From the IMG/VR virus record IMGVR_UViG_2681813236_000004: DNA of 64,000 nt, one strand, 5' to 3'. The stretch's first letter is position 1, and every line of letters starts with the position of its first letter. Shown here piece by piece: positions 55,564 through 60,165 of the stretch. The position numbers and the translations under genes are program-made. Origin of the DNA: an uncultured virus (IMG/VR IMGVR_UViG_2681813236_000004). Taxonomy: Duplodnaviria; Heunggongvirae; Uroviricota; Caudoviricetes. The notes under the pieces were generated by a model that had not been told where the DNA came from, did not search any database, and worked only from the letters and a program-made list of their open reading frames with translations.

Positions 55564-56391
55564 TTATTTCACCGGAACAAACGGAACAGCGGTATTACTG
55601 GTCATATACTGCGGTAATGTACCGTTCCATTTGTTGATCGCTTCCAACTCCATAACACCGGGGTTCTGGCGCAGAGCTTCACCACGTAAACGAATGGCAT
55701 CAGCTTCGGCCTGGGCTTTTGTGCGAATAGCATCAGCCTGTCCGGCAGCTTCCGCGCGCAGCATGTTGGCCTCTGCTTCACGTTGTTTGACCTCTTGCTC
55801 GCGTTGCAGAGTTTTTTGGTTTGCCGTGACTTTGGCGTTAATACTGTCAATAACTGTTGGCGGGTATTCTGGCTTACCTACATAAGAGAGGCTCATCACC
55901 TGAATGCCGATTGGCGTCATTTCTTCCTGAATGTCTTTAAGGGCTGCATCAAGCAATTCAGATTTGCCACCGTCGATAAATTTGTCGGTGGTCATTTTGC
56001 TGGCTAACCGGTTCAGAGCATCTGCAACCTTCTGGCGTAGATCGGTATCAGTAATATCATCTACACCTTTGCGATAGGTCTGAAATACCGTTGTGACTTT
56101 TGCTGGATCAACCTTGTAGGCTACGCCGATGTGGTAACCAATGGTTGTTCCGTCGCTCATCTGGAAGCTGAACGGCTCATCGTATGTCTTCATTTGCTTA
56201 AAGGTCGGGAAGATATAAACTTCAGTATTCAAGCCTGTCCAGTAGCGACCAACGCCAACTACTTCACCGATACCTTTATCATCCCCCAGCTTATTTACTT
56301 TGATCCCTACGTTACCTGGCTCTACCCGATCGCATCCGGTCAGACATAAAGAACCCAAAATAATCGCTGCACTAATCAACGTTTTTTTCAT
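55564..56391 (-). CDS. SPFH/band-7 domain lipoprotein
   Basis: LTGC lipobox, RVEPGNVGI, A/E-rich coiled coil, KWNGTLP. Confidence 0.88.
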   Translation of the reverse strand: MKKTLISAAIILGSLCLTGCDRVEPGNVGIKVNKLGDDKGIGEVVGVGRYWTGLNTEVYIFPTFKQMKTYDEPFSFQMSDGTTIGYHIGVAYKVDPAKVTTVFQTYRKGVDDITDTDLRQKVADALNRLASKMTTDKFIDGGKSELLDAALKDIQEEMTPIGIQVMSLSYVGKPEYPPTVIDSINAKVTANQKTLQREQEVKQREAEANMLRAEAAGQADAIRTKAQAEADAIRLRGEALRQNPGVMELEAINKWNGTLPQYMTSNTAVPFVPVK

Positions 56392-56608
56392 TAATTAATT
56401 TCCTGGTTTTTTCACGAAAAAAGACTACTGCGAAAGCCGGGTAAATGAGCGCGAGAAGGACTCCCAACAATACAAGTATTGTGCTGTTAGATGAGATCAT
56501 ATTTGGCAAAAGCCAAACATACAGAACCAGTGACACAATCAAACAGAGGACGGCATAAATATATAACCGCACCCATAGCGTTCGACATTTGTTCGGATTG
56601 TTCTGCAT
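56372..56608 (-). CDS. small two-TM membrane protein
   Basis: 78 aa overlapping the SPFH gene start. Confidence 0.75.
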   Translation of the reverse strand: MQNNPNKCRTLWVRLYIYAVLCLIVSLVLYVWLLPNMISSNSTILVLLGVLLALIYPAFAVVFFREKTRKLINEKNVD

Positions 56609-56641: not shown

Positions 56642-56761
56642 TGCGGTGCCGGGTGCCTCCCGGTATCCTTTGGCTGGTTATCTACCGTGGACGGGGAAAC
56701 AAGGAGAAATAATGGACAGATATAACCATTTCCCCGCGTGCGCTTAGCCGCATTCACCGCA
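56642..56761 (-). ncRNA. c4/CI-like tRNA-shaped RNA, unit A
   Basis: ends pair GCGGTG/CACCGC; GGTGAATGC head; CCGGG-aggca-CCCGG 3' hairpin. Confidence 0.6.
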
Positions 56762-57320: not shown

Positions 57321-57396
57321 TGGTGCCGGTTAACGGACTCGAACCGCTGACATCCTGCTTACAAGGCAGGCGCTCTACCAACTGAGCTAAACCGGC
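57321..57396 (-). tRNA. trnT: tRNA-Thr(TGT)
   Basis: 76-nt cloverleaf, CT-TGT-AA loop, CCA end. Confidence 0.96.
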
Positions 57397-57398
57397 AT

Positions 57399-57474
57399 TG
57401 GCGATGGTGGATGGATTTGAACCATCGACCCGTTGATTAACAGTCAACCGCTCTAACCGCTGAGCTACACCATC
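57399..57474 (-). tRNA. trnA: tRNA-Asn(GTT)
   Basis: 76-nt cloverleaf, CT-GTT-AA loop, CCA end. Confidence 0.96.
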
Positions 57475-57756
57475 ACTTGCCGGGTACGTCTCCGGCGAGG
57501 GCTTCCACCTCCGTATGCTTTTCGGCGCACCGCGCCCTGACTGCAATTCGGTAACAGGGGATGCATAATCCTGGCTTCCAGCGTGATTAGCGCCTTCAGC
57601 ATGACGGGATATACCCGTAAATTCGTGGAACTGTACCCAAAGTGCTGTTAAGCACCGCTGTTACGCTGAAAAGAAGACGCAACAGGAAAGGACGCTGACC
57701 AACAGATGGCCCCTTCTCGTTCATCTGGTTAATCACACCAGCGCCCTTACCTGTTG

Positions 57757-57950
57757 TGCCTCCCCGTTCCCTAATACACAGACGGGGACACTCTGTGGTC
57801 GATTTTTTGACGGGGGACGACTCATACCCCGTGGCGTCTGGCTTCTTAGGCCGCTACCATCATCAGATTATCGTTTGCATTTACTTTAATGGTCAGTTTC
57901 TAAACCGCCGCAAAGTCGCTAACCATGACGAAAACCCTGAAAAAAACGCC
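57757..57950 (-). ncRNA. tmRNA-like mRNA domain with tag frame ANDNLMMVAA
   Basis: AAAGTAAAT-GCA AAC GAT AAT CTG ATG ATG GTA GCG GCC TAA at 57878-57846 with flanking pseudoknot-like pairings. Confidence 0.6.
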
Positions 57951-57965
57951 CACCCGAAGATGGGC
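57940..57965 (-). terminator. intrinsic terminator in the leader of the tRNA-ban operon
   Basis: GCCCATC-ttcg-GGTGGGC then GTTTTTTT. Confidence 0.8.
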
Positions 57966-58128
57966 AAACTGGAAGCTCGTAACGCACTTCGGCGTTGCCA
58001 CTTAGGCGCATGGTCAACCTGGCAACTCGGTGGTTTGTCTGGGAGGACTAGGCCCAGCCATGCTTACCGCCGCGCCTGTCGCGGCTAACAGCTAAATCGC
58101 TCTATAAATCACGATTCATTGAGGCGAT

Positions 58129-58156
58129 ATTACACTAATAAATTTATTAGAGCAAT
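58129..58156. promoter_or_regulatory. bivalent C1 operator at the promoter of the tRNA-ban operon
   Basis: ATTACACTAATAAATTTATTAGAGCAAT, overlapping inverted operators. Confidence 0.93.
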
Positions 58157-60165
58157 ATACCTAAAACGTCATGAGCAACACCTCGAGTGTCCCCCTTACA
58201 AGACACAGAACGTCTGGCAAAAAGAGGTTCCACTCTGAAGCCATTGTCATGATAAAGCTCTCTGATGTTTGGCGCGCCACTGTTAGTAATGAGAACCTTT
58301 GCACCTCGGCGATGAGCATCCGTCAACAGAGACACCAGGCGTTTTTGCTCTTCAAACTTAAAGTCATGACCGGAATAGTTCGTGAATCCCTCTGTATTTG
58401 GAAGCGGTTCATATGGCGGATCGCAAAAAATGACATCTCCTTCTCCGGCAGCTTCAATCACCGCAGCAAAATCACCACATACAAACTCAGAACGCCCTTC
58501 CGCACCAAGGAAGGCTTCCATCTCCTGCAATGGGAAATACGGAGTTTTATACTTCCCATAACCGACATTGAACTCACCGGCCTGGTTGTAACGCGTCAAT
58601 CCGTTAAAACAATGTCGGTTCAGGAACAAAAACGCCGCTGCGCGATGTAAATCATCATAGACTTGTTTGTTAAACGCATTCCGTACTGCCAGGTATCCTT
58701 CCTGTGTGTTGTAGTCCTGGAAAAACCGATGCGCCAGAGTGATAAGTGAACGTTCCTCACGTTGCAAAGTCTTGTAAAAGTTAATCAGGTCAGCATTCAC
58801 ATCATTTAGCAGATTTTCCTTGTATCCGGCATTCATGAAGACAGCTCCGCCACCGACAAAAGGTTCAATCAGGCGCTTCCCTTCTGGCAAATAGCGAAAG
58901 ATTTGTTCCAGAACACCAAATTTTCCACCAGCCCATTTGAATATGGACCGTTCGAATTCTGCCGCTGGTTTAACTTTTCGCTCTTTTGTTTCATTCCCTT
59001 CATTCTGCCGACATGCAGCCTTGGTAATCCGATCGCCAATCCAGCGCATTACTGGTATCGCCATACTATTGCCGATCGCTTTGTAACGCGGTCCGTCAGC
59101 TGCAAGCATCGCGGCCTCTTCTTCGCTCAAATCAGGATAGTTTTTGCGAAGGTATGCCAGTTCATCTGAAGAAACTTTTTTACGCTTTTCCGTAGGGATC
59201 AATGTATGTCCATCAGGAAAACCTTGCAGCCTTTCACATTCGACAGGGGTAAGACGGCGCATTCTACCGTCGCCGAGCAATACAATTGGTGCTTCATGGT
59301 TACATGTCAAAGTTGGTGCCGAATTATCGGTTTTTATCTCAGCCCCTCCTTGCCCATGTGCCATGGCAATTATGTTTGTATCATCGCAAGTTCTGATAGC
59401 GATGTTTGAAGTATATCTGGTAGTTTCCTTCCCCTCGCCTCTGCTCGGCGCAATATTCCGGCGCACGCCTTCGAACTCAAAAAGTACCGTTGCGGGATCG
59501 AGGTCTGTTCGAGCACTTGCGACAACAAACACGCGTCGGCGTCGTTGTGCCACTCCGAAGTATTGGGCATCAAGGATTCTCCAGGCCACTTTTCGCTGCG
59601 GTCCATAAATACAACCACACTGCGGCCACTTTGGAGCATGGCAACCGGTTTTGACATCCCACCGCCAGAACGCGTTACTTTTTCCTGATTCAGGTCGATC
59701 ACCTGGTTCGAATGGCGCATCTTCTCCAGCCAATCCGGCAAGGAAACATCCGAAGGCGTTATCTGCCGATGACAAGACTCCTGGGACATTTTCCCAGACG
59801 ATAACTGCTGGTTTGAGAAATGACTCAGCCCGTTTGTCGTCAATTGCATTTGCAAGCTCCACATACTTTAAAGTTAGCGCGCCACGCTCATCATCAAGCC
59901 CACCACCTAATCCCGCGATACTGAATGCCTGACAAGGTGTTCCCCCGACGAGCACATCAGGGGATTCGATTTCCCCAGCCAGGACTTTTTTGGCAAGTTT
60001 TGTCATGTCGCCAAGGTTGGCGACATGGGGCCAGCGGTGCGCAAGAACGGCAGATGGAAAAGGCTCGATTTCAGCAAACCACGCCGGACGCATACCCAAC
60101 GGTTCCCAGGCAATACTCGCGGCTTCAATTCCACTGCAAACAGATCCATAGCACAGCTCTTTCAC
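58147..60165 (-). CDS. dmt: Dmt, fused C5-cytosine and Dam-type adenine methyltransferase
   Basis: PCQ, ENV, QRRRR, RLQGFP, GNS motifs then KWAGGK, EPFVGGG, DPPY. Confidence 0.96.
59370..59849 (-). CDS. nested alternative-frame ORF in dmt, EcoHK31I beta-subunit-like
   Basis: 159 aa, SD GGAG 7 nt upstream, [25 protein letters not shown] motif. Confidence 0.65.
   Translation of the reverse strand: MQLTTNGLSHFSNQQLSSGKMSQESCHRQITPSDVSLPDWLEKMRHSNQVIDLNQEKVTRSGGGMSKPVAMLQSGRSVVVFMDRSEKWPGESLMPNTSEWHNDADACLLSQVLEQTSIPQRYFLSSKACAGILRRAEARGRKLPDILQTSLSELAMIQT

Follow-up and report, generated by a model that had tools for sequence, protein, structure and literature searches.

The closest described relatives of the locus reported here are the tmRNAs, i.e. 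RNAs that combine a tRNA-like domain with a short message for a degradation tag, and they occur as a single molecule (SsrA; RF00023) or in a two-piece (permuted) form. In the natural two-piece form, the coding piece has the 5' strand of the tRNA-like domain at its beginning, and its acceptor piece is encoded in the same gene. In the one-piece form the adenosine at position 86, four nucleotides ahead of the resume codon, is read by SmpB to set the frame, as stated in the accessible parts of PMC2481249 and PMC8363625, and the former also indicates that rescue can persist when pseudoknot 1 (pk1) is altered. Complete tmRNAs are known from phages as well, namely from Bacillus phage G and the mycobacteriophage Bxz1 group (accessible part of PMC4131195). 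In a window of 64,000 nucleotides, i.e. the whole stretch of DNA that was analysed and which is a P1-like phage-plasmid, we find on the minus strand a module that, judged from its sequence, resembles the message half of a tmRNA in its workings and carries in addition an arm directed at the host molecule.

The whole module (57762..57936, minus strand; alignment A1) is about 175 nt long and consists, in the 5' to 3' direction, of an antisense arm, a resume spacer, a tag reading frame that runs into an H5-like hairpin, and two pseudoknots. The family model R1 detects it once in the window (57756-57944, 149.7 bits, the sequence being a training member of this model). The spacer is an A-rich stretch of 12 nt ending in UAAAU (57879..57890, minus strand, delimited from the alignment), whose positions -5 (U, 57883) and -4 (A, 57882) agree with the frame determinants U85 and A86 of E. 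coli. The A at -4 is invariant in 45/45 rows of the alignment, and the spacer ends in TAAAT in 59/63 arms and in CAAAT in 4/63, with the regular expression used for extraction demanding A or T at -4 to -2. It is followed by a frame of 10 codons (57846..57878, minus strand) that runs from GCA to GCC TAA, encodes ANDNLMMVAA-stop exactly as the sequence-only reading had it, and lacks a usable start codon, an in-frame TAG (57902-57900, minus strand) lying 8 codons upstream. Within the family a stop comes ahead of any start codon in 55/63 cases, a start comes first in 7 and neither is found in 1. The length of 10 codons is kept in 43/43 distinct sequences with the arm-only pattern (42 by regular expression, L033 by eye), all three stop codons being used, and the final residue is Ala in 40/41 distinct tag frames; ClpX prefers small hydrophobic residues at the terminus. 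A dN/dS-like ratio of 0.51 in frame, as opposed to 1.74 and 1.86 out of frame, gives the tag a coding signature across the family, which supports the earlier suggestion of a tmRNA-like message. As in tmRNA (RF00023), a tag of the type AN(D/E)...hydrophobic-Ala-stop is found under coding constraint, in a start-less frame behind the resume determinants U-5/A-4.

A conserved degron-like frame without a start codon could also be translated without the host tRNA-like domain, by internal entry or by ribosomes hopping from a non-stop mRNA, in which case the free degron would jam SspB/ClpXP and the arm would sequester the host tmRNA. We regard this as very improbable. No conserved upstream structure able to recruit a ribosome is present in the family, the small frame that could start from an ATG at -2 was rejected because neither its length nor its sequence is conserved, and an A at -4 is a determinant that SmpB reads (accessible part of PMC8363625).

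The 3' part of the module is structured. An H5-like hairpin (57832..57859, minus strand, from folding) holds the stop codon inside its loop and is the weakest helix of the alignment, with 77% of the cells of its 3 upper pairs paired. It is followed by the H-type pseudoknot a (57798..57832, minus strand, from the alignment), formed by ACGGGG/CCCCGT and GTCG/CGAC as previously proposed, the stems of which are 98.6% and 94.3% paired with two-sided changes at 7/9 pairs. The second CCCCGT/ACGGGG stem, described before as a stem by itself, is present but belongs, together with CACAGA/TCTGTG, to a second H-type pseudoknot b (57762..57797, minus strand, from the alignment); its first stem is 88.3% paired with a two-sided change at 2/4 pairs, and its second stem, of variable length, was left out of the pairing counts. 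Over the 45 rows 90.9% of the cells pair, as against at most 47.9% in slid controls, and two-sided changes number 108 versus 30.9 in shuffles (0/500 shuffles as high), figures that are inflated by the relatedness of the sequences; the number of pairs with a two-sided change (10 versus 8.3) and the pair types are not above those in shuffles of the same 45 rows. The module thus shares with tmRNA an H5 with the stop in its loop and downstream pseudoknots, be it that the pseudoknots number two and the H5 is weaker.

These observations bear on the proposal that the module is simply a non-functional relic of a phage tmRNA gene. Some copies are in fact decayed or reduced: in L191, a decayed P1 type that was left out of alignment A1, the arm is replaced and pseudoknot a deleted, L483 lacks the pseudoknots, the tag of L053 ends in Pro and L111 lacks pseudoknot a. 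The excess of two-sided changes, the coding bias together with dedicated promoters, and retention in unrelated virulent as well as temperate phages nevertheless largely refute this proposal and leave it the slightest of chances.

That retention is broad. In BLAST searches the 211-base module matches 439/50,697 phage records at E<=1 and 621/72,556 plasmids; a second family member used as query retrieves 801 phage records at E<=10, of which 398 match along more than 80% of its length and the last ones include chance matches, and a third has a match in 656/5,426 complete E. coli genomes. Carriers include the Ackermannviridae Erwinia phiEa2809, Det7 and Serratia KNP4, furthermore P1, ECBP1 (Schitoviridae), HK633, a Jedunavirus, STGO-35-1, pIS4-A, Felixouna-, Kolesnik-, Moogle- and Suspviruses, and one Klebsiella plasmid, which we take to be SSU5-like; the relatives span P1, lambdoid, Ackermannviridae, N4-like, Felix O1-like and SSU5-like groups. 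Most of the carriers examined have the module within a cluster of tRNA genes or in the leader of late genes. An odd 'pseudo' tRNA-Thr directly follows the element in ECBP1 (L003:2674-2749), an arrangement that is not general among carriers. Pattern scans of viral sequences yielded at least 120 and at least 119 loci, and a metagenome scan 71 loci with 48 distinct cores, 35 of them new and 5 of those due to chance. The distinct upstream 62-mers comprise 63 with an arm, 60 from complete phage tmRNAs and 3 others, two of which score like complete tmRNAs with model R1, the third being L191. The tag pattern has 8 matches in 401 Enterobacteriaceae genomes, namely 7 elements and 1 host tmRNA, and in a search beyond the enterobacteria it occurs in 1/401 order-wide genomes (G001 only). 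A scan of a broad genome collection was too loose, its 120 loci amounting to 1 element (L362), 2 ordinary tmRNAs and a remainder without tag. Model R1 has 0 matches in 121 genomes of family f24, a set without positive control, and an arm pattern devised for hosts with ANDDNY-type tags gave 1 viral match that was judged to be chance. Within the sequences searched, no element was found outside enterobacterial and Aeromonas phages.

The other half of a tmRNA is absent. ARAGORN finds 3 tRNAs and no tmRNA in the window, in agreement with the earlier remark that a T-arm/CCA 3' end is lacking, and neither a tRNA-like domain nor a tmRNA at the arm-bearing loci. When Rfam models were run over 721 bases, the resume/tag part matched tmRNA_permuted (25.3 bits, E 0.0039, cut-off 47) and alpha_tmRNA (15.7 bits, E 0.014, cut-off 50), i.e. 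there is a similarity above chance, yet one that stays below threshold. Neither RF00023 nor RF04321 exceeds its cut-off in any of 5 whole phage records (0/5), in which no acceptor piece was found and the T-arm matches of RF00023 fall within or near annotated tRNA clusters; RF00023 has no match in G002. An SmpB gene is likewise absent from 5/5 of these records. A phage-encoded acceptor piece or SmpB elsewhere in the phage was accordingly rejected, as was membership of the two-piece tmRNAs (RF04321, RF01849), for which scores remain below cut-off and the acceptor piece is missing; a split gene that carries its own acceptor piece is not supported by these records. At the 5' side, 16/69 distinct upstream contexts contain a consensus promoter whose end lies 7 or 12 nt ahead of the arm, as compared with 9 matches over all of the 163 other offsets, and a transcript from such a promoter would begin at the arm and have no room for a 5' domain. 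The arms upstream of the resume codon show no conserved fold (mean z -0.2), and an internal pk1 was rejected for that reason. Since the defining tRNA-like domain was tested for and is absent, the module is not a member of the tmRNA families. Neither host nor phage tmRNAs yielded a clear sequence ancestor for its 3' half (local scores at most 27). Environmental phage contigs contain about 60 distinct complete tmRNA genes (L133-L251) with the same UAAAU-GCA resume context as the element; these are possible ancestors of the module, their 3' halves being without clear alignment to it.

What replaces the missing half is indicated by the arm (57891..57936, minus strand; 46 nt, unstructured; defined by cofolding and family statistics), which is antisense to nt 57-105 of the host tmRNA and is the key feature that the sequence-only reading missed. 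With the tmRNA of E. coli K-12 as reference, supplemented by tmRNAs of further genomes, cofolding predicts 38 pairs (35 Watson-Crick, 3 G-U) in a duplex that covers both strands of pk1, A86, the resume codon and codons 2-5 of the host. The motif GGGTTTTCGTC, taken before for a remnant of a tmRNA 5' domain, is instead the reverse complement of host tag codons 2-5, and the stem ATGGTTAG/CTGACCAT does fold in the window but has both halves in only 5/63 distinct arms and is no feature of the family. The best site lies over the host resume codon (nt 90) for 62/63 distinct arms and for 1/60 upstream segments of complete phage tmRNAs, where it should be noted that the 'arm' class was defined partly via an arm motif and that the sequences are related, so that these counts are not independent. 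Against dinucleotide shuffles (host nt 45-112; duplex energies computed without pseudoknots) the mean z-score is -5.9 and 61/63 arms beat all 60 shuffles. Binding minus self-folding amounts to -19.1 kcal/mol on average (weakest -9.4), versus -6.1 for 63 control pieces, and the arms hardly fold on themselves, with a mean z of -0.2 and 0/63 below -2. All 63/63 have a stronger predicted binding to the host region than to the resume region of their own RNA, and sequence complementary to three blocks of the arm is confined, in 4/4 bacterial genomes, to ssrA and the element itself. It is these family statistics that are decisive for the predicted complementarity; the window arm alone is only moderately unusual, its energy with the whole tmRNA being modest (12/1000 shuffles as good; rank 8 of 4126 window segments), and in the lowest-energy fold of the window the arm pairs with its own tag. 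Taken together, the predicted pairing with host tmRNA is specific, conserved and accessible, as expected of a trans-acting antisense RNA. The host tmRNA is therefore the likely partner, and the earlier suggestion that the module acts in trans was right in spirit, though not as regards a neighbouring tRNA-like partner, none of which exceeds the cut-off in 5/5 phage records.

When the window arm was compared with 48 gammaproteobacterial tmRNAs, its best pairing energies (-45 to -38 kcal/mol) were those with 11/12 of the tmRNAs that share the enterobacterial target. Of 52 long arms, 40 have a common last block and 12 a variant one, and 12/12 variant forms retain pairing with one or the other of two observed host alleles. 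In the prophage copy of G720 the change in the arm matches the changed pk1 of its own host; this is one matching change among 5 host-prophage pairs, and searches by genus for further host-element pairs added one (L437). As the target is nearly invariant among hosts, host-element covariation rests on that one pair. The host G568 has a divergent pk1 and an element with a short arm that avoids pk1; short arms are also found with canonical hosts. Codon 3 of the tag is GAT in 33/41 elements versus 22/52 complete phage tmRNAs, a preference that fits selection against pairing between arm and tag. At codon 6, UAC is used in 1/41 element tags versus 14/52 tags of complete phage tmRNAs, the host using UAC as well, and its rarity in elements could reflect nuclease avoidance or ancestry.

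Two readings of the arm have to be weighed, and the geometry of the predicted hybrid bears on both. In E. coli pk1, G57 is taken to pair with C76, as is also visible in the sequence, and the distance from this partner of G57 to G90 is 13 nt. In the computed hybrid G57 pairs instead with the last base of the arm, 12 nt before the phage resume codon, which is thereby placed within 1 nt of the native distance. Most long arms have a spacer of 11-13 nt, whereas the short arms, which leave pk1 intact and end at host positions 77-81, have spacers of 14-18 nt because the RNA must turn back. Neither this spacing nor a coding-constrained tag is needed by a pure inhibitor.

We consider it probable that the module is a 'tethered message' of the phage that borrows the tRNA-like domain and SmpB of the host. 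The RNA would be made during lytic growth, and its arm would anneal to the host tmRNA from pk1 to codon 5, thereby hiding the host resume codon. The duplex would then take the place of pk1 stem 2 and bring the phage resume codon beside the host tRNA-like domain and SmpB, and after alanine transfer the ribosome would resume on the phage RNA, add a phage-encoded ssrA-type degron and stop in the H5-like loop. Several points count against this. Trans-translation is blocked in vitro by an oligonucleotide complementary to the tmRNA message (accessible part of PMC8012679), so that pairing alone is inhibitory; a long arm would, in the predicted duplex, melt pk1, for which a part in the tilting of the ribosome head has been proposed; and the mRNA entrance is already taken up by host H5/PK2, which would compete there with the phage H5 and pseudoknot (both in the accessible part of PMC8363625).

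The block by an oligonucleotide also speaks for the main rival, namely an antisense inhibitor or decoy, whose arm would silence the host tmRNA or mark it for RNase III and whose tag half would titrate SmpB, S1 or stalled ribosomes and not be read productively. All of the arm-host complementarity serves this reading, as do the destruction of pk1 by long arms and the inhibition of tmRNA by the tRNA-like-domain-only RNA of phage DS6A, which is its mirror case (accessible parts of PMC4131195 and PMC11915505). We still hold it to be unlikely, since it leaves unexplained the in-frame coding bias, the fixed length of 10 codons with three different stops, the hydrophobic-Ala ends and the spacer lengths that track the type of arm, and since some phages need tmRNA for growth (lambda-immP22; accessible part of PMC2481249).

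The setting of the module suggests how a tethered message could be expressed. From dmt to the tRNA-Asn/Thr genes the window is 98.7% identical to phage P1, the annotation of which (AF234172) has entries for the ban promoters, for the C1 operator Obanab and for a 'dicF-like region', and none for the module itself. Mapped by hand from that annotation, the C1 operator Op72ab/Obanab with the P1ban promoter lies at 58127..58156 on the minus strand (-35 box 58155-58150, -10 box 58132-58127), and a hairpin with U tract that resembles an intrinsic terminator (57939..57965, minus strand, from folding) directly precedes the module. The expectation of a C1-repressed, lytic-phase RNA is hence supported by a place within the C1-controlled ban operon but complicated by the terminator between promoter and module, and in P1 types expression would require terminator read-through and processing; a promoter within the P1 module itself was rejected, since 1 site was found versus 3.4 expected. 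Directly 3' of pseudoknot b a long hairpin (57674..57762, minus strand; -44.2 kcal/mol) is likely to be a processing site of the RNase III type that fixes the 3' end of the module, and its opening motif is present in 47/101 distinct downstream sequences of relatives. Hairpins of the ACAGGTAAG type open three times in the tRNA region (at about 57756, 57317 and 56833, minus strand) and are likely processing sites. In other phages, the promoter positions suggest that several lineages have an own promoter that starts transcription at the arm. As regards transcripts, the window stretch is present in 14 RNA runs of 7 studies, and one RNA-library contig covers 57390-58158 with a depth of 37, versus 13 over the end of dmt upstream of the operator. 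Such a contig, which shows neither strand nor level, is only suggestive of transcription of the module, and 3 RNA runs for which raw reads were inspected have no reads on it.

Several other features share this region. The genes for tRNA-Asn (57399-57474) and tRNA-Thr (57321-57396), both on the minus strand and called by ARAGORN, are in the same transcript region as the module. Between the ban promoter and the terminator lies a structured leader (57948-58120, minus strand) that overlaps the P1 'dicF-like region' and has no Rfam match above cut-off, and 56642-56761 (minus strand) has a sub-threshold match to STnc100 (33 bits versus a cut-off of 47). Frames of 78 aa and 275 aa (55564-56608, minus strand) take the place of P1 tciABC, the latter presumably resembling a band-7/SPFH lipoprotein, and a frame of 672 aa (58147-60165, minus strand) occupies the place of P1 dmt, a bifunctional methyltransferase.

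The neighbourhood also invites a cis-acting role, in which termination or processing of downstream phage genes would be controlled by tmRNA that binds to the nascent phage transcript, or by a rescued ribosome that reads its tag. The module often stands at the very start of its transcript, as judged from promoter positions, a terminator adjoins it in the window, it follows pR' in HK633, and folding predicts that the arm can pair alternately with its own tag or with the host RNA. Such a sensor is nonetheless quite improbable, given that what lies 3' of the module differs between carriers (tRNA clusters, lysis region, antisense to tail genes), that the P1 terminator lies upstream of the module and not downstream, and that a processing-type hairpin often follows at the 3' side.

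For the tethered message, the likeliest purpose would be to protect or mend the portion of tmRNA cut by host RNases, such that ribosome recycling continues during infection. Phage tRNAs have been proposed to offset tRNA-cutting defences (accessible part of PMC10264068), and by analogy the module might compensate for a damaged tmRNA; defence systems that may bind tmRNA have been predicted (accessible part of PMC11090510). As the phage tags are still degron-like, an advantage through evasion of proteolysis is unlikely. The complete proposal, i.e. that phages of at least six unrelated groups deploy a guide-plus-message RNA which turns host tmRNA into a hybrid two-molecule tmRNA with a phage-written tag and so counters host RNase defences aimed at tmRNA, seems to us slightly better than an even bet. 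If true, it would constitute a new kind of RNA, in which one molecule lends the tRNA-like domain and SmpB and another the message; phage and host would be shown to compete over ribosome rescue, a stretch left without annotation in well-studied phages (P1, Felix O1-like, Det7, HK633) would be accounted for, and the system would test how much of tmRNA needs covalent linkage and offer a simple means of rewriting ssrA tagging in trans. More generally, it suggests that phages of gut bacteria may patch or take over the rescue-and-tagging system of the host. Even as an inhibitor the module would be an undescribed natural antisense RNA against tmRNA, as far as the literature was searched.

That search covered the open full-text literature, in which we found no published description of such a module. 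The accessible parts of the tmRNA surveys PMC4131195 and PMC11915505 cover complete phage tmRNAs and the DS6A form and contain no such module, and PMC1168896 makes no mention of phage. As far as searched, the module appears new, and its function is a predicted one. An 'anti-ssrA' oligonucleotide table in PMC2373887 was considered as comparator and dropped, its entries being, by eye and in the accessible text, not complementary to tmRNA.

Compared with the one-piece tmRNA (RF00023), the module has the U-5/A-4 resume context, the 10-codon AN(D/E)...hydrophobic-Ala tag, the stop codon in an H5-like loop and downstream pseudoknots, and weak matches fall at model positions 82/84-140 in 4/5 phage records and 56-294 in the Felix-type record. 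It differs in the lack of acceptor stem, CCA, T arm, H2 and pk1, in having two downstream pseudoknots where tmRNA has three, in its 5' arm antisense to another molecule, and in scores of at most 15.9 bits versus a cut-off of 47. With the coding piece of two-piece tmRNA (RF04321, RF01849), the type that gives its best Rfam match (20-33 bits versus a cut-off of 47), it would share the principle of a tag-coding RNA that works only when paired to a second RNA, but it has neither the 5' strand of the tRNA-like domain nor an acceptor piece, and its predicted partner is an intact host tmRNA held via pk1 and the message. The DS6A RNA is likewise a phage-borne half tmRNA acting on the host system; according to the accessible parts of PMC4131195 and PMC11915505, however, it keeps the tRNA-like half and inhibits tmRNA, whereas the module is the mirror image that keeps the message half and adds a targeting arm. 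Finally, the synthetic anti-ssrA oligonucleotide (Hanes and Pluckthun 1997, as cited in the accessible part of PMC8012679) is similarly complementary to the tmRNA message, but in contrast to it and to the base-pairing small RNAs of phages, the module is natural, is predicted to target a housekeeping RNA instead of an mRNA, and brings along a replacement reading frame of its own.
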